Below, piece after piece: positions 39,571 through 49,422 of a DNA stretch of 64,000 nt. The position numbers and the translations under genes were made by a program. The stretch comes from a candidate division WOR-3 bacterium (GTDB lineage: Bacteria; Hydrothermota; Tepidihabitantia; Tepidihabitantales; Tepidihabitantaceae). Positions within the stretch are counted from its first letter, which is position 1. The number at the start of each line of letters is the position of its first letter. The notes beneath the pieces were generated by a model. The model saw only the letters and a program-made list of their open reading frames with translations, did not search any database and was not told the origin of the DNA. The DNA lies in contig CBFGKH010000008.1 in the NCBI GenBank assembly GCA_965649295.1, positions 64,001-128,000 on the forward strand. Reading direction: 5' to 3'.

Positions 39571-40233
39571 TCAGGGTACGACAGTAACCACTAGCACCGG
39601 CGACCAGCCACTAGCGGCGCCGAGCGTGTCCTGGGCCCTGACCCGGACCCAATACTCGCCAGGAGCAGACCAGGAATAGAGCAGTCGGGCAGTGTCGCCG
39701 CTAGCGTAACCGCTAGCGGTCGTGGTCCGGCCATCACCCCAGTCAAAGCAGTAGCTGATGATGTCGGCCTCAGGGTCGGTTGTTGCCGCGCGAAACTCGG
39801 CAGCCGAGTCAGCCGGCAGGGTGTCCCGTCCGAGCACAGCTGTTGGCGGTAGCGGCGGCGCGTTGATTACGGTCACCTGTTTTGGCTCTGACCAGGCTGA
39901 TGCCGGTCGGTCGGCAGCCACAGCGATGACTCGACAGCGGACAGTGAAGTGGCCGGTGTCGAGCCAAGTATGGACTAGGGTCACAGTATCACCGAGCCGC
40001 AGCGGCCCAGTAGTCTCGGTGGCAACGTTGCTCCAGACTATCACATAGCAGATACGGGCGACGACGTCGGGCTGATTGTAGAATCGAAACGTGCCCGGTT
40101 CATGATGGTGAAGGGTGTCGGGACCGGCTGGGGTTTCGGGCATGGGCAGGTCATTGCGGCCGCAGCAGAAAATGAGGAGTGCCGCCAGCAAAGGCGGCAC
40201 TCCTCCTAACAGGTGTTTCAGACCAGCCCTCAA
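39571..40233 (-). CDS. PKD-domain lipoprotein
   Basis: Lipobox-like Cys; TDPEAD.ISYCFDWGDG, YWVRVRAQD. Confidence 0.75.
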   Translation of the reverse strand: MRAGLKHLLGGVPPLLAALLIFCCGRNDLPMPETPAGPDTLHHHEPGTFRFYNQPDVVARICYVIVWSNVATETTGPLRLGDTVTLVHTWLDTGHFTVRCRVIAVAADRPASAWSEPKQVTVINAPPLPPTAVLGRDTLPADSAAEFRAATTDPEADIISYCFDWGDGRTTTASGYASGDTARLLYSWSAPGEYWVRVRAQDTLGAASGWSPVLVVTVVP

Positions 40234-42363
40234 CTAGCGAGCGCCATACCGACCGGTGTGGCGGGCGTCGTGGTGGAACATCGGCCAGGGCGTTGTTGCC
40301 AGACGCCGGTTGGCCGCTGGGCCGGCAACGGCAAACAGGCCGCTCTGAGTGGCGACATAGATGATGCCGTATTCGTCAAGTACTGGCGATGGTTGCTCGC
40401 TGAAGCCAAACCGACGGGCGCCCGATGGCGGAAGCAGGTCGAGGTACCAGCGGACAAAGCCGAACCGATCGAGCGAGAAGAGCCGTTCGTCATCATCAAC
40501 AAGATAGAAGCCGTCCTGATACACGACCGGCGTGGCAGAGAATGCGTAGGTCGAAATCGGCTTCGGCCAGCCAGGCTCAGACTGGCGGGTCTGGATGTTG
40601 ATGTTGTGGAACCGGCCGTTCTCGTCGGCAATATAAATATTGCCGTCGGTGCCGAAGACGGGTGACGATGTGAAAGCAGTTGACTCGGCAGTGTAGGTCC
40701 ACTGGATGGCGCCGTCCTTGACGGCGTGCAGGCGACCAGCCTCAGTGGCGACATAGGCGGTGCCGTCGGGACCAATCGCCGGGCTGGCAGTGATGCCAAC
40801 CGGGTCGGTGGCTACGGTCCAGACAACGGCGCCGGCCGGAGTAACCTTGTACACGAAGCCGGAGTCGTCGGCGACGATGACATTGCCGGCTCCGTCAATT
40901 ACCGGCGATGAGGATGCCTCATAGCGCAGGTCAACAGCCCAGTTGTGGGTGTAGGTCGAGCCGTTGTCGGTTATCTTGTGGAGCTTGCGGTCGTCGCCAG
41001 CAAAGTAGATGGCGTTGCCGTCAATTGCCGGCGTGGTGGTGATGTCAATCCCGGTTGCCGAGTCAGGATAGTGCCAGACCAAGGAACAGTTGGGGGCGAT
41101 TGCAAAGAGCGTACCATTGTCGTTGCCGATGTAGATTGTGCCGTTGGTGTTGATGGCGGGGGACGAACTGAAGCCTTCGAGGTCGTCGCCAAGCGTGCCG
41201 CGGTCGAGCAGCCGTCGTGCGGTCGGGCCGAGGTGGGCATCAATACAGACAATCGCCTCGTCTTCGTTGCCGAAGCTCTTGCTGCCGATGACGAGCGCGG
41301 TCTGATTGCCGCCGCGATAGGGCATGGTGCTGATAGCCGGAGAGCTGATGAATTCGCCACTAATCGCCCAAATCTGCTGTCCCTCGCCGACAACGCGGAA
41401 GGTAGTAGCACGTTCGGCCGAACGGGCACCATAAGGGTCAATTGCGACGACTCGGATGTTGAACGTGCCGGTATCGGTAGGAGTCCAGGTGGCAAAACCA
41501 GTGCTGCCACTGCGGAAGTAGCTGGTAGTCACACTGTCACTTGCGCCGAAATAGAAGCGGTAGCAGATACTGTCGCCATCGTCGTCAATCGCCCAGACAT
41601 AGAAGCGATAGGCCGGGCCGTTGGCCATGCCTTGGGACGGGGCAGCATCAAACGTTGGCGTGCCTGGGGCGCGATTGCCGCCCGGAACCTGGATGGTGAT
41701 GACGGTCGGCGGTGAGGCCGGTGAAGTGTCGCCGCGGACATCAATTGCCCAAGCAGTGATGGTCTTCTGGCCGGCGCTGGGATAGCGGACATAAGCAGTG
41801 GCAGTGCCACCGCTGGGGAGGGTTGGGCTCTCGTAAGGGTTGAGGCCGGGGTCGCCAAAAGTAATCAGGACGCGCAGCGAGTCGTTGTCCGGGTCGGTTG
41901 CCGAGGTGGTAATGGTCAGCAGCGAGTCCTTGAAAAGCGGCCCAGACACAGCCGGCTGAGTTGGCGCATTGGGACGCTGGTTCGGCGGTGGATTGGCCGA
42001 ATCGTAATAGACCCGCACTCGGAGCGTATCTGACCAGTCCGGGCTGTACAGGCCCTTTTCGTCTTTGGCTTTGACGCGAATGTAGTAAACGCCAAGTGAA
42101 CGCCAGGCGTGGCTGGCGGTTACGGTCTGGCCGGATTTGACCAGGTCGGTTACGGTTGAATCGCCGTCGCGCCAGTCAAAGATGTACAGTATGCGATCGC
42201 GATTGGGGTCGGTGGTAACAGCGGTATAGGCGGCGGTGTCGCCGAGCGCTACCGAGTCTGGCCCAGTCGGCCGAGCCGGGACTCGCGGCGCCTTATTACG
42301 ACAGCCGGCTGCGAGCAGCAGAATCATTGCGGCCAGCAGCGTACAGACCAGGTTTCGTTTCAC
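40234..42363 (-). CDS. Lipoprotein with PKD repeats and PQQ-type beta-propeller
   Basis: LAAGC lipobox; YIFDWRDG; repeated SSPAI..DG.IY; WPMFHHDARHTG. Confidence 0.85.
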   Translation of the reverse strand: MKRNLVCTLLAAMILLLAAGCRNKAPRVPARPTGPDSVALGDTAAYTAVTTDPNRDRILYIFDWRDGDSTVTDLVKSGQTVTASHAWRSLGVYYIRVKAKDEKGLYSPDWSDTLRVRVYYDSANPPPNQRPNAPTQPAVSGPLFKDSLLTITTSATDPDNDSLRVLITFGDPGLNPYESPTLPSGGTATAYVRYPSAGQKTITAWAIDVRGDTSPASPPTVITIQVPGGNRAPGTPTFDAAPSQGMANGPAYRFYVWAIDDDGDSICYRFYFGASDSVTTSYFRSGSTGFATWTPTDTGTFNIRVVAIDPYGARSAERATTFRVVGEGQQIWAISGEFISSPAISTMPYRGGNQTALVIGSKSFGNEDEAIVCIDAHLGPTARRLLDRGTLGDDLEGFSSSPAINTNGTIYIGNDNGTLFAIAPNCSLVWHYPDSATGIDITTTPAIDGNAIYFAGDDRKLHKITDNGSTYTHNWAVDLRYEASSSPVIDGAGNVIVADDSGFVYKVTPAGAVVWTVATDPVGITASPAIGPDGTAYVATEAGRLHAVKDGAIQWTYTAESTAFTSSPVFGTDGNIYIADENGRFHNINIQTRQSEPGWPKPISTYAFSATPVVYQDGFYLVDDDERLFSLDRFGFVRWYLDLLPPSGARRFGFSEQPSPVLDEYGIIYVATQSGLFAVAGPAANRRLATTPWPMFHHDARHTGRYGAR

Positions 42364-42457
42364 AACTCCTCCTAAAGATCGGTGGCTTCCTGCAAGATAA
42401 AGCAACATAAGAGGATAGCCAAAATCGCGTGCGCGTCAATACTCAGGATGTTTCAGA

Positions 42458-42660
42458 GCTGTGGGGAGATAAAGTGGTGCGCGGTGCGCCTTGGGCTTAG
42501 GCGCACCGCGCTGGTGTTGGTCCCCGTCGAGATTTGATTGACTGGTGAAGGAAGGAGGGGACACTTGTGAGCGCAAAACCCTCCCTTGAGACAGTTGGAG
42601 AGAACCTCAGCTTGGCTCGGTCTAAAACTCTCCAAGGCCCACCACGTTACTACCCCAGCG
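42458..42660 (-). ncRNA. Candidate sigma54-dependent structured sRNA (~200 nt), family unknown
   Basis: 5' end GCTGGGGTAGTAACGTGGTG can pair with 3' end CACCACTTTATCTCCCCACAGC; three internal hairpins; begins 12 nt after a -12 GC. Confidence 0.65.
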
Positions 42661-42670
42661 TTTCCCTTAC

Positions 42671-42687
42671 TGCAACTCCTGTTCCAG
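42671..42687 (-). promoter_or_regulatory. Sigma54 (-24/-12) promoter
   Basis: CTGGAACAGGAGTTGCA (GG-N10-GC). Confidence 0.7.
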
Positions 42688-42711
42688 CAGCCAAGGTTTC
42701 CATTGTCTTCT

Positions 42712-42765
42712 GTAAGTGTCACACTTACGCATCTTGTGGGAAGGTATGCGACCAATAATGTCGCA
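42712..42765. promoter_or_regulatory. Putative enhancer (UAS) and second palindromic site upstream of the sigma54 promoter
   Basis: TGCGAC-N7-GTCGCA (42747-65); GTAAGTGT-C-ACACTTAC (42712-28). Confidence 0.6.
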
Positions 42766-42814
42766 CTAGCTTAGAAAGTGCCGTATTCTTCTGCTTTAGA
42801 ACAGCAGAAAACGG

Positions 42815-44410
42815 CTATAGATTGTATTCGTCGAGCTTGCGCCGCAGGGTGTCGCGGTGGATTCCGAGTAGTTCTGCGGCCTTGGTCTGGTTGTTACCAG
42901 TCTTGGCCAGGGCTTCCTTGATCGCCAGTCGTTCTAGCTGCTGTAGATTGAGGGTGCCGGTGATCTTTTCAATTGAGACGGACTGTCCGGTCGGAGCACT
43001 GGCGCTGGGCGGGTGGAGGAGGCTGGCCATGGCCAGGGTTGACATTATGTGACCGAGGCCGAGCTGTTTGCTACCGTCGTATTGGGCGCGTTCGTAGGCC
43101 CGTTCGATTACGTTGCACAGTGTCCGGATGTTGCTGACGAAGATCTGGTTGCCGCCATCGATGTGTTCCTGAACGAGCTGGGTCAGGAACTTGACTGCAG
43201 CCGGTTCGGCGGTGAGTTTATTCGGATGGCGCGGACTGGCGTTCATTTGATTGATGATGTACTCAAAGTAGTCGCCGATGTCGGCAGCCACGACCTGCGG
43301 CGACTCAGACTGCCAGCGTTCGCGCAGGGACGGAACAATTATGCAGTGCTGGACAAGACGGGCGTAGAAGTCGGGCCGGAAGCGAACTTGAAGTTCGGCA
43401 ATAGTGCGGTTGGTAGCGGCGATAATCCGCATGTCCACCACGGTCTCAGTGGATGAACCGAGTCGTTTGATGCGGTGGTGTTCAATCGCCCGGAGGAGTT
43501 TGACCTGAACTTCTTGGTCAACATCACCGATTTCGTCGAGGAGAACAGTCGAGCCCTGGGCGGCCTCGAAGATACCCGCTCGCTCGCCGGTAGCGCCGGT
43601 GAAGGCGCCTCTTTCATGGCCGAACAGTTCGTCCTCGATAAGGCTACGTTCGAGCGAGGCCATGTTGACGGTGCAGGGATACTCACGGAGCCGGTCCTGG
43701 GCACGATAGCGACTACTACAGCGGTGCAGGGCGTTGGCCACCAGTTCCTTGCCAGAGCCAGTCGGACCAAGCAGGATGACTGCCGCATCGGAGGGGCCGA
43801 TTCGTTCAATCTCGTAGGCGAGGAGCGCCATTTTGCGGGCCCGGCCGATGACCATGTGATGGTCATCCAGCCAGCGCTGGCGCCGGTTTTCGTCGAGTGG
43901 CCGCAGGGCCAGGGTATCAATGCTTTCGCAGATATGGGGATAGTAGTTCTCGCCGGCTGCCCGTTCCGGCACAAAATTACAGATTCCGTATCCGGGATGG
44001 ACAATGAACTCGGCGAACTCGCTAAGTGATTCGGTGCCGATGCGGCCAGAGACAAACAGTACTGGTGCTACTCGATCGATATCATCGTGGCGAAGGTGGG
44101 CATAGATAATGAATCCCTGCAATGCCTGGTTGTCGAACGGCCGCGAGCTGGGCCGCAACGAGGCTGGTCGCGCGGCGAGCTTGCGTTCGTCCTTGATGTG
44201 CGAGAAGTCAATATCCTGGACAATTAGCGACACAAAACGACCGGTGTTGTGGCGATACCAATCGCGAAGCGCGGCGAGACAGTCGATGTGTTCGAAGTCG
44301 AACTCGGCCGCCAGCCGGCCGCCAGCATAGCTACGGGCATGGCTGACTAGGGTGTCGAAGCTGGTTTTCAGGTCATCGATGACGAGGATAACGGGTTTAG
44401 GGTCGGGCAT
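42815..44410 (-). CDS. Sigma54-dependent activator (bEBP) with divergent receiver domain
   Basis: VILVIDD/QDIDF receiver-like N-terminus; GPTGSGKE, ELFGHERGAFTGA, LLDEIGD; Fis HTH. Confidence 0.93.
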   Translation of the reverse strand: MPDPKPVILVIDDLKTSFDTLVSHARSYAGGRLAAEFDFEHIDCLAALRDWYRHNTGRFVSLIVQDIDFSHIKDERKLAARPASLRPSSRPFDNQALQGFIIYAHLRHDDIDRVAPVLFVSGRIGTESLSEFAEFIVHPGYGICNFVPERAAGENYYPHICESIDTLALRPLDENRRQRWLDDHHMVIGRARKMALLAYEIERIGPSDAAVILLGPTGSGKELVANALHRCSSRYRAQDRLREYPCTVNMASLERSLIEDELFGHERGAFTGATGERAGIFEAAQGSTVLLDEIGDVDQEVQVKLLRAIEHHRIKRLGSSTETVVDMRIIAATNRTIAELQVRFRPDFYARLVQHCIIVPSLRERWQSESPQVVAADIGDYFEYIINQMNASPRHPNKLTAEPAAVKFLTQLVQEHIDGGNQIFVSNIRTLCNVIERAYERAQYDGSKQLGLGHIMSTLAMASLLHPPSASAPTGQSVSIEKITGTLNLQQLERLAIKEALAKTGNNQTKAAELLGIHRDTLRRKLDEYNL

Positions 44411-44412
44411 CG

Positions 44413-46626
44413 CTATTGTGATTGTAGGCTTTGGGGTTGGGTTTGCAAGCGGTTATGGGCCTCCTGCAACACCGAGATGAGGTCGGTGATGCGGAGCCAG
44501 AGTTTTTCTTCGGGGTGGGCTGGTTGCCAGTCTGGGCCGGGCGCGTCGAGGGCGGGGCGCAAGTTGGTAACGAGCTCGGTGAGCTCACTGACGAGGTGTC
44601 CCTGGCGCTGACCGAGATCAATCCTCTCGGTCGAGTCGGAGTAAAGGGTGATGAGGAGCTTGCGGTTCCACTGGGTGCTGACGATGTAATCGAGGACGAT
44701 TGCGCCCTTGTTGTGGGCGTAGCTGAAGTGGTCGATCAGCAGGTGCTCAAACACGCTGCGCAGCCGTGGGCTGGAGAACCAGCGCAATTGGCCGTAGATG
44801 TCGGGGTACTCCCGGTTGCGAACGCAGAGAATCCTGAAACCGGGCTGGGCCAGTTCTTGGTCTAGCTGTTCACGGCTGATGGTTGCAACGCTAGTTTCGG
44901 GCCGGATATGTAGCGCGGTCTTGGTAATGAAATCAAGAGCCAGGTCGGTCGGGGTCCTTTCGATGAGCCGGGTGACAGCAGCAGAGTAGTGTGGTTCGAT
45001 GCGGGTTCGAATCTGCCCCAGGTCATAATCGTCCTTCAGTCCAGCGCGGTCGCGTATATCGATAAGCCGATCCAGCGCGGCCGGCCAGTTGCCCTTGGAG
45101 ATGAAGTTGTGTTCGAGAGCGACAAAATCGACTGCCAAGCCGGTGCGAACCGATAGTGGCAGACTTTCGATGAGCTGACGGGTTGTCTTTCGTCGTCGTA
45201 GCAGGATAAGCGCTAGACTGATAACGAGACCTAGACCTAGGGCGGAGATTAGCAAGGTGGGCAACAGGCGCCGGACTGAGAAAGGAGTTCGTCGCAGCCG
45301 GGGTGTTGGAAGCTGACGGTTGGGGTCGAGGCTGGCATTGAGCAGTTCGAGCCGACGCAGGGCCCGTTGGAGACCGGTTTCGTCGCCGGCCAGGGCAGCG
45401 GCATTTGCCCTCGCTTCGGCCTCGACAATGGCCTGCCGCAGGTGATGGAGGTTGTTCTTGAACAGGTCAATCCGATAGGGTGAGTCGGCCGCGGTGCGAA
45501 CGACTACCAGATCGGGAAAGGTGTCAGCGCCAAGTTGGGCAGTGAGCAGGTGCCGGAAGGTGACGCCGTTGTAGCCGGGCGAGTAGTCAACCGCATCGGC
45601 TAGGTTGGCGGGTAGTAGGTGGAATGTTTCCGGCCCAGACGGCTTTCGCCAGATTACGAGTAACCGACCAGCAACGGGCGCAAGCAGGACTGGTCGGCCC
45701 AAAGTGGGAGCGAACAGATGTTTCGCACACTGCCGTCCGGAATCGTCGAACGCGGCGATGAATCCCTGGTTATCAGGAGCGAGAGTACCAGCAACATAGC
45801 AGGCGCCGGTTGTGGCCAGCACAGCCAGGCCGCTCGCCGGGCTTCCGTCAATCACCAGCGGGGCAGACCAGCGAACCTGGGCGGTGGTGCCGCCAAGACA
45901 GGTGAGGATCGAGGACGAACTGCCGTCGGTCGTCGGGCCGGCCAAGCCGACGATTTCGGGCTCGCCGTCCTGATCAATGTCAGCGCAGGAGAACTTGCTG
46001 ATGGCCGGTACACGAATGACCAGCTCGCGGCGGCCGCCGAGGTCAGCTACCAGCAGTCCATCTGGACCAGCGGCGACAAACTCGGGGATTCCGTCGCCGT
46101 CGAGCTCACAGAGCAGCGATTGGTTTGAGGCGTGGCCGGGTCGCAGCCGGTTGCTGGTAGCGGTGTTTTGGGTCAGGGCAATCAGCCAGGCGGTGTCGCC
46201 AGCCCAGGCGCAGCAGTGCAGTGTCTCACCGCGGCCCGGCGAGACGAAGGTGAGGCTGTCAACATTAGTGGGCAGGATTTTCGCCGATTGCCAGCGCCAC
46301 TGACCGAAGATGTTGGTGCTGACTATTGTGCCCTGGGTGGCAAAGTAGAGAGAAGAATCGACCCCAGCCAGTGCAGTAGCGCCGGCCGGAGCTTGGCCGA
46401 CAATCCGCAGGGTGTCGGCCAGCGAGACGGTGGCAAGCCGACCGTCGGCGAGCAGCAGATAGACGACGTCACCGCCAGGTTGGTGAAGGACCGTCACTGC
46501 TCGGGGTCGAGCCGCGAGCTTGAAGGATTGCAGCGGCGACAGGAGGCCGGCCTCGGCGGGCAGCACCAACGCCAAGAGGGTCAGCAACGGAAGCAGGCGA
46601 TGATGGGGCGTGGGTGCCAGGACCAC
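44413..46626 (-). CDS. Membrane sensor-like protein: FG-GAP propeller + TM + degenerate histidine-kinase-like region
   Basis: Signal peptide; DGDGIPE and DIDQDGEPE repeats; one TM; LEHNF and LRSVFEHLLIDHFSYA. Confidence 0.7.
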   Translation of the reverse strand: MVLAPTPHHRLLPLLTLLALVLPAEAGLLSPLQSFKLAARPRAVTVLHQPGGDVVYLLLADGRLATVSLADTLRIVGQAPAGATALAGVDSSLYFATQGTIVSTNIFGQWRWQSAKILPTNVDSLTFVSPGRGETLHCCAWAGDTAWLIALTQNTATSNRLRPGHASNQSLLCELDGDGIPEFVAAGPDGLLVADLGGRRELVIRVPAISKFSCADIDQDGEPEIVGLAGPTTDGSSSSILTCLGGTTAQVRWSAPLVIDGSPASGLAVLATTGACYVAGTLAPDNQGFIAAFDDSGRQCAKHLFAPTLGRPVLLAPVAGRLLVIWRKPSGPETFHLLPANLADAVDYSPGYNGVTFRHLLTAQLGADTFPDLVVVRTAADSPYRIDLFKNNLHHLRQAIVEAEARANAAALAGDETGLQRALRRLELLNASLDPNRQLPTPRLRRTPFSVRRLLPTLLISALGLGLVISLALILLRRRKTTRQLIESLPLSVRTGLAVDFVALEHNFISKGNWPAALDRLIDIRDRAGLKDDYDLGQIRTRIEPHYSAAVTRLIERTPTDLALDFITKTALHIRPETSVATISREQLDQELAQPGFRILCVRNREYPDIYGQLRWFSSPRLRSVFEHLLIDHFSYAHNKGAIVLDYIVSTQWNRKLLITLYSDSTERIDLGQRQGHLVSELTELVTNLRPALDAPGPDWQPAHPEEKLWLRITDLISVLQEAHNRLQTQPQSLQSQ

Positions 46627-46677: not shown

Positions 46678-47835
46678 CTAGCGGTTGGCGGCGCCGTCCT
46701 GAACTGCGGCGACGACAGTAGCAAACTCCTTTTCTGACATCAATGGCTCCATTGGCAGCGAGACAACTTCGGCAGCAGCTTGCTCGGTCTCAAGTAGCGG
46801 GCCAGCAACTCGGGCGCGGCTGGCAAAAGCCTTCATCTTGTGGAGCGGCAGACCGTAACGTACCGCGCAGGCGACGTTGCGGTCGCAAAGATACTGAATG
46901 AGCCGGTCGCGGTTGGTGCTGCGCAGGGTGTAGCCGTTATAGACATGCTCGCCGTTTTGGGGGAATGGCGGCGGGGTGATGCCGGGGATGCGACCAAAGG
47001 TACGGGTGTATTGGATCGCAATCTGCCGGCGCAGACCGTTGAATGCCTCAATGTGGTTGAGCTTGGCGAGGAGGACAGCGGCCTGCAGCGTGTCCAGCCG
47101 GCTGTTGTAGCCGAGGAGGTCGGCCGACTCGGTACCATTGGTGCCGTGCCGGCGCAGACTGTCAATGATGCGAACCAGCTCGGGGTCATCGGTTGTCACC
47201 ATTCCGCCCTCGCCGAAGCCACTCAGGTTGCTCTCCGGGCCGAAACTGAAAGCGGCCGCGTCGCCAAACGAACCGCAACGTCGGCTGCCGCAGCGGGCGC
47301 CAAACGCCTGAGCGGTATCCTCGACAACAAAGAGCTGGTGATCGCGGGCGATGGCAATGATTTCGTCAAGGCAGCAGGCCTGACCATAGAGATGAACCGG
47401 CACGATTCCCACGGTTCGGCTGGTGATGGCGGCGTGGATTTGGGCGGGCGCGATGTTGAACGAAGTGCGGTCGATATCAACGAACACCGGCGTTGCGCCT
47501 GCTCGGACGATCGCATCAGCCGTTGCCGGGTGACTGAAGGCGGTGGTGATTATCTCATCTTCGAAACGGAAGTACTCCCGGCCGGTCCGCTGCTGCGCAA
47601 GCGCTCGCAGCGCCAGTAGTAACGCATCGGTGCCCGAGGCACACCCGACAGCGTGTTTCGTACCGACATACTCGGCGACGCGAGTCTCAAGCTCCCGAAC
47701 CTCGGGGCCATTGACCCAGCCCTGATGATTCAGGGCACGACTGATGGCGGTGTCAATGTCGTCACGAAGAAAGTCATATTGACGCTTGGGGTCGAAGAGC
47801 GGAACCCGAAAGCGCGGTTTGTTTGAGCCGGTCAT
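46678..47835 (-). CDS. DegT/DnrJ/EryC1/StrS (WbpE-like) aminotransferase homolog lacking the catalytic Lys
   Basis: ASGTDAL, VHLYGQ, VEDTAQAFG, GYNSRLD; SFGPESNL in place of SFxPxKNL. Confidence 0.85.
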   Translation of the reverse strand: MTGSNKPRFRVPLFDPKRQYDFLRDDIDTAISRALNHQGWVNGPEVRELETRVAEYVGTKHAVGCASGTDALLLALRALAQQRTGREYFRFEDEIITTAFSHPATADAIVRAGATPVFVDIDRTSFNIAPAQIHAAITSRTVGIVPVHLYGQACCLDEIIAIARDHQLFVVEDTAQAFGARCGSRRCGSFGDAAAFSFGPESNLSGFGEGGMVTTDDPELVRIIDSLRRHGTNGTESADLLGYNSRLDTLQAAVLLAKLNHIEAFNGLRRQIAIQYTRTFGRIPGITPPPFPQNGEHVYNGYTLRSTNRDRLIQYLCDRNVACAVRYGLPLHKMKAFASRARVAGPLLETEQAAAEVVSLPMEPLMSEKEFATVVAAVQDGAANR

Positions 47836-47883
47836 TCATCCCTCCCACAGTCTTAGAACTCAGAGCATCATAATCTTGTTTCT

Positions 47884-49422
47884 TTACACCGTTCGCTGCT
47901 GGTCACAAGGCCGCGGCCGGTCTTCAACCAGTTCGTATTCACCGCCACAGCCGGGGCAGCGGGTTCTAGCAGCAACAAAAGCAAGGCTAACACCGCAGGC
48001 GCAGGCCCAGCCCTGAAAACGGGCTGGTGTGCCGGCGACTACGGCATAGTCAGGAACATCAGTAGTGACAACCGCGCCGTCACCAACGCGGCAATACTGA
48101 CCGAGTGTACAACCGGCGGCAATGGTCGCTCGGTGGCCAATGACCGCACCGCGCCGAATACGGGTGGTTACTACCGACCGTGAATCGCCCACGGCTGCGC
48201 CGTTGCCACAGCTAACGTTGTCGCCGATTTCAACTCCCGCGCCGATGATGGCGCCGGTGCCAATCCGGCAACCCGCACCAATCCGGGCATCACTGGCTAC
48301 CAGCGCGCCGGCAGCTACCACCGTGTCAGGGCCGAGCCGCGGGTTAGCGCTAATGACGTTGGCAACTGGAACTAGCTGCGGCGGCGGGTTCTTGGCAACG
48401 GTTGTCGGTGACGCCATTGCCTGAGACACAGTTAGTGGCCAGGGTTCGGCGCTGGTCGCGCCGGCGGGTTCCTCGTCCGGGACTAGGTCGGGATGGGCCT
48501 CGCCGATGGAGACAAGCTGACCTTGGGCCAGCAGCGATTCCTCGGCAGCAGCCAGTACCCGTAGGAGCTTCAGGTATTCGTGACCGTCGGTTCGCGAGGG
48601 CAGACGGTTGGTGCAGCAGTCGAGGAAATGCTCGCATTCGACCAGCAGCGGGTCGCGGTTGAGATAGGGAACGAGTTCCTCAGCGGCGCTGGCGACACCG
48701 GTCGGCTTGGGCCCAGGAGCGGGGCGGACGAGCTTGATGCCAGGCAGAGCGTCGTCAAGAACAGCCAGTCCGCGCGAGCCGATAACGACGAGCTGGGCAG
48801 CGGCCAGCGGATGAAGCCAGGATACAAAAGTATGGGCGATGATGCCGCCCGAAAATGTAATCGCTGTCAGGGTGACATCGGAAGCGGCGAAACCGAGAAA
48901 CGGCGAGCCGTGCGCGGCCACCCGTACCGGCTGGTCTTCGAGCAGACCGAGAATGACGGCCAGGTCATCGGGAGCAAAGCTGGTCCTCAGCTCTTCGTCC
49001 GGCCGTAGCTGGCCAGGGCAGAAGCGATGGACGTAGATATGCTCGATGCGGCCGAGCACGCCCAGGCCAACTAGTTCCTGAAGCTTGAGTACTGCCGGGT
49101 GATAGCGCCGAGCACAGCCGACCTGCAGAATCCGCGATTGGCTGTCAGCCAAGGCAACCAGTTCCTCGGCAGCGGCAATGTCGGCGGCCAACGGTGGCTC
49201 AACAAAGACATCTCTGCCGGCGGTAAGCGCTGCGCGGCAGATCTCGAGTTGTGCCGCAGGCTCTGTCGCTACGACTAGGCCGTCAATGGTCGGGTCGGCA
49301 AGGAGTTGGGTTGGTTCTGGTCTTTCGGTGCCAAGGCGCAGGGCACCAAGGCGGGCGAACTCCCGCGCCAAGGCTGCGGCGCGACCGCGACTGCCGACAA
49401 CAGCGAGACGCCGCCGGGTCAT
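47884..49422 (-). CDS. Gfo/Idh/MocA oxidoreductase - hexapeptide acyltransferase fusion (WbpB/WbpD-like), degenerate motifs
   Basis: VFVEPP, FVSWLHP; hexapeptide repeats; DVPDYAVVAGTPARFQGWACACG. Confidence 0.8.
   Translation of the reverse strand: MTRRRLAVVGSRGRAAALAREFARLGALRLGTERPEPTQLLADPTIDGLVVATEPAAQLEICRAALTAGRDVFVEPPLAADIAAAEELVALADSQSRILQVGCARRYHPAVLKLQELVGLGVLGRIEHIYVHRFCPGQLRPDEELRTSFAPDDLAVILGLLEDQPVRVAAHGSPFLGFAASDVTLTAITFSGGIIAHTFVSWLHPLAAAQLVVIGSRGLAVLDDALPGIKLVRPAPGPKPTGVASAAEELVPYLNRDPLLVECEHFLDCCTNRLPSRTDGHEYLKLLRVLAAAEESLLAQGQLVSIGEAHPDLVPDEEPAGATSAEPWPLTVSQAMASPTTVAKNPPPQLVPVANVISANPRLGPDTVVAAGALVASDARIGAGCRIGTGAIIGAGVEIGDNVSCGNGAAVGDSRSVVTTRIRRGAVIGHRATIAAGCTLGQYCRVGDGAVVTTDVPDYAVVAGTPARFQGWACACGVSLAFVAARTRCPGCGGEYELVEDRPRPCDQQRTV

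Follow-up and report, generated by a model that had tools for sequence, protein, structure and literature searches.

The stretch analysed here (the window) is 64,000 nucleotides (nt) of contig CBFGKH010000008.1 (positions 64,001 to 128,000 of the forward strand; assembly GCA_965649295.1) from a candidate division WOR-3 bacterium of the family Tepidihabitantaceae, and all coordinates are positions in the window unless a contig is named. On the minus strand, which carries every feature of the module, a gene for a 737-amino-acid (aa) membrane protein is followed by a gene for a bacterial enhancer-binding protein (bEBP) whose TAG stop codon occupies 42817-42815, and then by two dyads, a palindrome, a sigma-54 promoter and a non-coding RNA (ncRNA) that closes with a GC-rich hairpin (Table 1). 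The bEBP gene and the RNA are a conserved unit across the bacterial family. The RNA is a real, well-delimited new RNA family; the regulatory design to which it belongs is already known. An earlier sequence-only reading of the window had proposed a sigma-54-regulated RNA behind the bEBP gene, and the comparison of homologs supports a predicted sigma-54-promoter-driven, conserved, hairpin-terminated ncRNA at this place.

A covariance model (R1) built from ten copies in three genera matches the window at 42470-42663 with 112 bits. It detects the RNA in 36 of the 43 other genomes of the family (26 of 29 among high-quality genomes) and, with the window's genus counted, in 12 of 15 genera, and it has no match in 22 genomes from four sister families of the order. 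Two of the seven R1-negative family genomes were inspected behind the bEBP gene and both are positive, one with the RNA cut by a contig end (G012) and the other with a divergent copy (G030). A blastn search with 42440-42700 recovers 14 of 36 other family genomes and none of 24 genomes outside the family. A pattern scan of genome contigs gave eight loci, of which six are real, including two further copies; the other two, in metagenome-assembled genomes of a Usitatibacteraceae and an Acidobacteriota member, were discarded as chance matches.

The RNA keeps its position behind orthologous bEBP genes. In 26 of 31 loci the gene immediately upstream encodes a bEBP ortholog (48-65% identity), has the same orientation and ends 130-230 nt before the RNA; the five exceptions are two second copies in genus g8 and three loci with too little or masked upstream DNA. 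Those second copies (L025, G016:C145, and L026, G024:C27) occur in two of the three g8 genomes, away from any bEBP gene, and are preceded by TGCCG..CGGCA and TGTCGCA words as in the first copies. The shared upstream words suggest one activator with two RNA genes.

The promoter TGGAACAGGAGTTGCA (42671-42686) agrees with TGGCAC-N5-TTGCW at 10 of 11 positions. The GG-N10-GC element read earlier at 42687-42671 is confirmed as the only consensus match in the window: TGGMAY-N5-TTGCW occurs there once, with an expected mean of 0.28 and at least one match in 25 of 100 shuffles. The rpoN gene, which the earlier reading presupposed, is present in the window's genome (161.7 bits). A promoter-like site stands just upstream of the RNA in all 38 homologous copies; it agrees at 9 or more of the 11 positions in 37 of them, and the GG and GC are both intact in 34. 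One copy in genus g9 (L040 = L013 = L034, G036:C262, at a contig start) has an altered -24 GG (TGTCAAGACTCTTGCA), perhaps as a strain variant or because the copy is decaying; a second copy in that genome (L024) has an intact promoter and stops at a contig break.

Purifying selection acts on exactly the interval from the promoter to the terminal hairpin. Close relatives are represented by contigs from four hot-spring metagenome runs, about 90-97% alike, which were compared over 42380-42860; the counts below are of the listed differences, nine more exist, and the figures are therefore lower bounds for the flanks or the body. The RNA body (42475-42660) has at least five substitutions, all of the listed ones at 42586-42593, in a linker private to the window's genus. 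The downstream flank 42433-42467 has at least eight substitutions, a 1-nt deletion lies at 42474, and the upstream flank 42661-42820 has at least about 30 substitutions; both flanks are about 20% diverged. The promoter itself is unchanged among the listed differences, and the 10 nt from the promoter to the predicted transcription start vary. This pattern indicates that the functional unit spans the promoter to the terminal hairpin. Part of the stretch is present in five DNA metagenome runs according to a sequencing-run search, with no RNA run among the matches.

Table 1. Features of the bEBP-RNA locus and its surroundings, with positions in the 64,000-nt window
Feature	Position	Strand	Remarks
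ncRNA, ~186 nt	42475-42660	-	predicted 5' end 12 nt past the -12 C; 3' end just past the terminal hairpin
Sigma-54 promoter CTGGAACAGGAGTTGCA	42671-42687	-	-24 GG 42685-42684; -12 GC 42673-42672
bEBP gene, 531 aa	42815-44410	-	Sigma54_activat, GAFTGA, HTH_8
737-aa membrane protein ("sensor")	44413-46626	-	predicted structure
Dyad TTCTGCT-N7-AGCAGAA, candidate enhancer site (upstream activating sequence)	42789-42809		~105-135 bp upstream of the promoter
Dyad TGCGAC-N7-GTCGCA, candidate enhancer site (upstream activating sequence)	42747-42765		
Palindrome GTAAGTGT/ACACTTAC, 8-bp	42712-42728		
Hairpin H1 UUGGAGAG/CUCUCCAA	42595-42635	-	invariant apical motif GACCGAGCC at 42614-42622
Middle stem of the sequence-only reading (H2) AGGGAGGG/CCCUCCUU	42579-42586 / 42552-42559	-	minimum-energy fold
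Motif UGCGCUC (family consensus CGCGCUC)	42569-42575	-	no consistent pairing partner
Hairpin H3 GUCCCC/GGGGAC around conserved loop CCUCC...UCACCAGUCAA...CUCGAC	42520-42562	-	
Terminal 13-bp GC hairpin, stem GCGCGGUGCGCCU, loop AAGCCCA, then ACCACUUUAUC	42479-42511	-	
Sigma-70-like site TTGACG-16-TATCCT of the next gene	42439-42412		
Next gene, PKD/PQQ beta-propeller lipoprotein	40234-42408	-	begins 67 nt past the terminal hairpin

Two dyads with a spacer of seven nucleotides, some 60-135 bp upstream of the promoter, are candidate enhancer sites. TGCGAC-N7-GTCGCA is the palindrome reported earlier behind the bEBP stop codon and is present there; TTCTGCT-N7-AGCAGAA had been overlooked and shares its N7 geometry. 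Both half-sites of the former are unchanged among the listed close-relative differences, only the spacer position 42756 varying, and arm position 42803 of the latter is altered in one close-relative run. Loci of g9 have CTGC/GCAG-type dyads at the position matching the latter dyad, and GTCGCA words are found again before the promoter in loci of g8 and g9. More widely among the homologs, the interval from the bEBP stop codon to the promoter repeatedly contains TGCCG-N7/8-CGGCA, GTCGCA and CTGC..GCAG dyads, as judged by eye and unscored. The second palindrome of the earlier reading is likewise present but is altered at three positions in the close relatives.

The region 42665-42450 folds with a minimum energy of -89.7 kcal/mol (z = -5.06; none of 200 shuffles as good), and the trimmed RNA, 42660-42471, folds with z = -3.61. 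The three inner hairpins described from the sequence (H1, the middle stem H2 and the terminal 13-bp stem) are all in the minimum-energy fold, and the first and last are supported by covariation, but the middle one competes with the more widely kept H3: 23 of 38 copies have an H3 that beats 95% of shuffles, and 4 of 38 have such an H2. Three of the four copies that support H2 belong to genus g13, where its arms covary. H2 and H3 share one C-run and are mutually exclusive.

The terminal stem is present in all 38 copies with 11-14 bp; it is 99.7% paired over 34 copies, and 10 of its 11 pairs covary. Helices 6-7, which form H3, are 97% paired with five of six pairs changing on both sides, and the H1 helix GAGAG/CUCUC is 90.9% paired with three of five pairs doing so. 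In the 34 copies aligned to R1, 91.6% of all cells are paired, a level that none of 500 shuffles attains (shuffles give 80.9%); with slid partners the figure is 38-55%. Both members change in 27 of 35 pairs. All these counts, those for single helices included, lean toward the model, to which the alignment had been fitted. Hints for H1 that are independent of the alignment come from the g8 second copies, in which its apical part is deleted and the stem rebuilt as GGAGAGC/GCUCUCC, and from g3 and g12, in which both arms are missing together. The CGCGCUC motif is found with at most two changes in 36 of 36 anchored copies, and single-sequence folds pair it with different partners in different copies; a leader helix GUGGGC/GCUCAU (UA to GC in five copies) is unconfirmed for this reason. 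Many homolog tails (for example, L037, L047, L048, L067 and L068) continue after the terminal stem with CCUCCUUU, which matches the anti-Shine-Dalgarno end of 16S rRNA; this word is absent from the window's tail.

A long-range helix between the 5' end and the sequence beyond the terminal hairpin had been thought to enclose these hairpins in a closed multibranch fold. This sequence does contain such a helix, yet conservation is lacking. Complementarity between the two regions exceeds 95% of shuffles in 2 of 37 copies, the window being one of them, and the close relatives carry the 1-nt deletion at 42474 and substitutions at 42467, 42460 and 42458 in the 3' strand and none in the 5' strand, so that 4 of about 17 pairs are hit by uncompensated changes. 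Thus, the closing helix is private to this genome, the conserved RNA stops at the terminal hairpin and the closed multibranch fold is not supported.

The RNA has no counterpart among Rfam families. Rfam 15 gives no match at the gathering score anywhere in the window, which leaves the proposed novelty of the RNA itself standing. At E values up to 10, the region 42300-42900 matches only COG2908 (14.3 bits versus the 58.7 needed) and a fragment of a long non-coding RNA, both at chance level (E ~1). None of the known sigma-54-dependent small RNA (sRNA) families in Rfam (Pxr, CrcZ, Qrr, GlmY/GlmZ, NrsZ and others) is matched, and no prior description came up in Rfam or in literature searches made without the lineage name, which could miss a paper that names the organism.

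The bEBP contains a Sigma54_activat domain (Pfam, E = 5.5e-47) and a Fis-type helix-turn-helix (HTH_8, E = 7.9e-15), and its translation includes GAFTGA. Its N-terminal 190 aa match no Pfam family, Response_reg included; the AF2 model of this part (pLDDT 81) is a receiver domain with an insertion, and its top Foldseek matches are all receiver domains. Genera g1 (the window's own), g8, g9 and g10 retain the aspartate pair DD (12-13) and D66, which ends strand 3; in g3, g5, g12, g13 and g2 these residues are replaced.

At the default threshold the 737-aa protein has no match in Pfam or NCBIfam, HisKA and HATPase_c included, and a PDB sequence search and a protein atlas gave no match; a faint FG-GAP-like repeat in its periplasmic part (FG-GAP_3, E = 0.0021) stays below the cut-off. 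The protein consists of a signal peptide, a periplasmic part, one transmembrane helix and a cytoplasmic C-terminal part of 282 aa. In the AF2 model (pLDDT 90.6), the C-terminal domain resembles the DHp and CA modules of histidine kinases, with CpxA, DesK, HK853 and ThkA as top Foldseek matches (E ~1e-4). One histidine, in DHNF, is invariant, and canonical ATP-lid motifs are not recognised among the conserved residues. The protein occurs in 13 of 44 family genomes and 3 of 15 genera, namely g1, g8 (3 of 3 genomes) and g9 (9 of 11), and in the loci of g8 and g9 that were compared, its gene immediately precedes the bEBP gene. The name "sensor" is thus a fair label in this genome, in keeping with the predicted kinase-like fold, yet the protein is a clade-specific addition and no general part of the module.

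All of the neighbouring genes look ordinary. Upstream (46678-49422, minus strand) lie genes for a DegT/DnrJ-type aminotransferase and for a fusion of a GFO/IDH/MocA oxidoreductase with a hexapeptide transferase, a set that looks like sugar modification; downstream (39571-42408, minus strand) are two genes for PKD-domain proteins, one with a PQQ-like beta-propeller.

The bEBP orthogroup, defined by its N-terminal domain, is wider than the RNA: it is present in 38 of 43 genomes of the window's family (f1), 2 of 2 of f2, 4 of 4 of f3, 6 of 6 of f4 and none of 10 of f5. At one f2 locus (L107, G037:C69:11000-12300, ~395-520) TGGCATAATTTTTGCT and a unit of some 95 nt, with a sigma-54 promoter and a terminator, come after the orthologous bEBP gene; the unit closes with GGTGCATGC..GCATGCACC and a T-run, and R1 gives no match there. 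Since this unit differs from the RNA, the layout may be older than the RNA family, the RNA having been replaced or having diverged.

The window's genome, of 2.3 Mb, has five strong PF00158 matches and appears to hold a second unit of like design (L098, ~308-2216; G000:C16:3000-6200). There, a 465-aa bEBP open reading frame (ORF; 308-1705) is followed by CTGGCACGGCTGTTGCA (1826-1842) and about 290 nt without an ORF of more than 54 aa; a hairpin (GAGCAGGGGCG/CGCCCCTGCTC) and then a TTGACG-N17-TATAAT site precede the next gene. The unit has no Rfam match at the gathering score.

The favoured reading, to which we assign a probability of about 0.78, is that the locus produces a regulatory RNA of ~186 nt from its own transcription unit and that this RNA is the local output, perhaps even the main one, of the sigma-54 activator whose gene immediately precedes it. 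A signal would reach the divergent receiver domain of the bEBP, and in the window's genus and two others its source would most likely be the adjacent histidine-kinase-like membrane protein. The bEBP would bind the N7 dyads ~60-135 bp upstream of the promoter and, using ATP, open the sigma-54 holoenzyme complex at TGGAAC-N5-TTGCA; transcription would begin near 42660 and stop after the 13-bp GC hairpin. Because the architecture matches published cases of a bEBP gene followed by an ncRNA, we infer that the adjacent bEBP activates the RNA through the dyads; the transcript ends and the mode of action are likewise proposals.

As to that mode of action, the RNA could act in trans without Hfq, base pairing through conserved, largely unpaired pyrimidine-rich blocks and covering the ribosome-binding regions of target mRNAs. 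The pairing blocks would be the H3 loop CCUCC..UCACCAGUCAA, which resembles an anti-Shine-Dalgarno sequence, and the C-rich terminal loop. Provided that the RNA is real, this proposal falls slightly short of an even chance. Hfq (PF17209) has no match in the window's genome, which is 100% complete by marker genes, and is matched in control genomes; CsrA (PF02599) has no match in the window's genome either. The few GGA words of the RNA lie within the G-rich linker.

Several results weigh against this account of the locus. The -24 element of the window is TGGAAC instead of TGGCAC, the one departure from the consensus (10 of 11). The window's tail ACCACUUUAUC fails the terminator rule and a scan finds no terminator-like site; lacking a T-run, the terminal hairpin is by rule no canonical intrinsic terminator, and with the next gene starting 67 nt after it on the same strand, some read-through is possible. 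The terminal stem, H1 and H3 covary in the R1 alignment, but a fresh RNAalifold run on the diverse R1 alignment reduces the structure to the terminal stem plus a 3-bp hairpin at the 5' end, and on a plain MAFFT alignment the inner helices are lost as well. Neither an adjacent RNA unit nor a sigma-54 promoter stands behind the bEBP orthologs of f3 and f4 in six of six loci (L109-L114; three each), where the next gene begins or converges within tens of nucleotides; the regulatory target of these orthologs must lie elsewhere.

Target scans, which covered the window's own genome and its 2024 predicted start regions, add to these points, as they give no target signal above controls. Full-length RNAduplex runs against the start regions return meaningless long duplexes, the best H3-loop duplex scores -37.6 as compared with -36 to -42 for reversed or shuffled queries, and exact complementarity of at least 10 nt occurs 28 times versus 17 and 8 in the controls. 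The top candidate, a 16-bp duplex over the ribosome-binding site of a PF00144-family gene (G000:C8:132187), was dropped: an ortholog exists in one of five relatives and lacks the site. A whole-genome blastn-short search for targets yields only chance-level 13-14-mers, and the 8-mer GACTGGTG, being frequent within genes, was rejected as a genome-wide motif. The four separate invariant blocks, moreover, exceed the needs of a simple seed-type sRNA.

The RNA may instead be a structured protein-binding or switch-like molecule and not a base-pairing sRNA, with its blocks as contact surfaces and the C-run, paired in H2 or H3, as a two-state element. Even between genera whose bEBPs share just ~50% identity, the blocks GACCGAGCC, CGCGCUC, CUCACCAGUC and ACUCUCGAYGGGGACC are retained along with the word AGUGCCCAC of the terminal loop, which speaks for this possibility together with the lack of a consistent partner for CGCGCUC and the silent target scans; yet no candidate partner gene apart from the bEBP is kept beside the locus in the flanks of homologous loci, and the absence of matches to CsrA and Hfq tells against it as well. 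Of the two exclusive stems, H3 is well supported in g1, g9, g3, g2 and most g8 and g12 copies and H2 is strong in g13 (2, 7, 19 and 6 of 200 shuffles as good), but the two-state idea comes from thermodynamic predictions and lineage-specific stems, not from covariation of both states in one lineage. We regard this alternative as doubtful. Its fuller form is more doubtful still. Here the structured RNA would have several surfaces for contact with partners and a two-state core: the C-run would pair either with the upstream G-rich block, showing CGCGCUC in a loop, or with the downstream GGGGAC, showing the anti-Shine-Dalgarno-like loop. An orphan receiver-bEBP, in a lineage lacking Hfq and CsrA, would have this RNA as its dedicated output. 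If real, a two-state RNA of this sort would open a new functional class among sigma-54 output RNAs, for example by sequestering a protein or sensing temperature or a ligand in hot-spring bacteria.

It is improbable that the RNA is a cis-acting, terminator-gated leader, the sigma-54 promoter serving the PKD/PQQ beta-propeller lipoprotein gene and the hairpin attenuating read-through into it. That gene is indeed close and on the same strand, but it has a sigma-70-like promoter of its own, found where the earlier reading had placed it, and close-relative conservation ends at the hairpin, the spacer 42433-42467 belonging to the diverged flank. The window's hairpin is without a good U-tract, whereas across the family a T-run of at least three follows the terminal stem in 33 of 38 copies and one of at least four in 21 of 38. 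One gene pair follows the RNA in all of g3, g12 and g2 (presumably TldD/PmbA-like, as judged from the N-terminal sequences and not by a family search); elsewhere, however, the downstream gene varies between genera and is convergent in g9, no relative of the window's downstream protein occurs within the flanks retrieved for the 31 homologous loci, and the g8 second copies lie away from the bEBP gene. That the stretch encodes a small protein is extremely improbable. The statement that no credible ORF lies here needs amending insofar as a mechanical 100-aa TTG ORF (42453-42755, minus strand) overlaps the RNA, and long stop-free runs arise in G+C-rich DNA; its substance holds, as the homologs share no frame. 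The longest ORF switches frame and strand among copies, and the spacing from GACCGAG to CGCGCUC falls into all three classes modulo 3 (18, 10 and 8 of 36 copies). The TTG ORF would start before the promoter, the close relatives carry the 1-nt deletion inside it, and their listed substitutions cluster in one 8-nt linker and not at third codon positions. The stretch is non-coding.

A regulatory RNA as the output of the adjacent sigma-54 activator, the reading preferred here, has well-known parallels. CrcZ and CrcY with CbrAB, and Qrr1-5 with LuxO, are sRNAs that form the output of a bEBP response regulator via a sigma-54 promoter; crcZ adjoins cbrB, and in some systems several sRNA copies are under one activator. 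CrcZ sequesters Hfq/Crc via A-rich motifs and the Qrr sRNAs need Hfq, whereas the window's genome has no detectable Hfq and the window RNA has neither A-rich repeats nor an Rfam match.

As a kind, the module is not undescribed, contrary to what had been claimed for it: a bEBP gene followed by its own sigma-54-dependent ncRNA is a published design, going by the available parts of three reports (Pxr/nla19, PMC5568312; NrsZ/ntrC, PMC4253122; DVU0653/DVU0679, PMC4641369). The sRNA gene of Pxr/nla19, which gates fruiting-body development, lies directly downstream of a sigma-54-dependent response-regulator gene and, in the available text of PMC5568312, resembles the present case in having its own predicted sigma-54 promoter, several stem-loops, conservation in one lineage and, in some genomes, paralogous copies each with its own sigma-54 promoter. 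The two RNAs have no sequence or covariance-model similarity in Rfam scans and differ in length (~186 nt for the window RNA, 108 nt for Pxr as given in that text); the window RNA comes from an unrelated uncultured lineage, and the receiver of its bEBP is too divergent for Pfam.

NrsZ of Pseudomonas aeruginosa, as far as the accessible portion of PMC4253122 describes it, offers the same order of sensor kinase (NtrB), bEBP (NtrC) and a sigma-54-dependent sRNA right after the bEBP gene, with a promoter of the TGGCAC-N5-TTGCW type. NrsZ is composed of three repeated stem-loop modules, is processed, responds to nitrogen limitation and has rhlA as a target (PMC4253122, same portion). The window RNA, in contrast, has no internal repeats or Rfam match, and its kinase-like partner lacks recognisable HisKA/HATPase motifs. 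For DVU0653 and DVU0679 of Desulfovibrio vulgaris Hildenborough, the only bEBP target listed in the part of PMC4641369 at hand is an ncRNA just downstream of the bEBP gene, a one-activator, one-RNA layout like that of the window; such regulators tend to occur in free-living species, according to the same part. The likeness is one of layout; the phylum and the RNAs are others, and the Desulfovibrio cases come from a reconstruction of binding sites and promoters in a cultured model organism (PMC4641369, in that part).

The principle being already known, the value of the finding lies in a catalogue entry and a handle for metatranscriptomics. It adds a family-wide RNA gene and a working covariance model for a lineage of uncultured bacteria, and it sets out a concrete, testable circuit of kinase-like sensor, receiver-bEBP, sigma-54 and RNA. 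The layout of an activator followed by its own sigma-54-dependent RNA, known from Proteobacteria and Myxococcota, thereby extends to this lineage.

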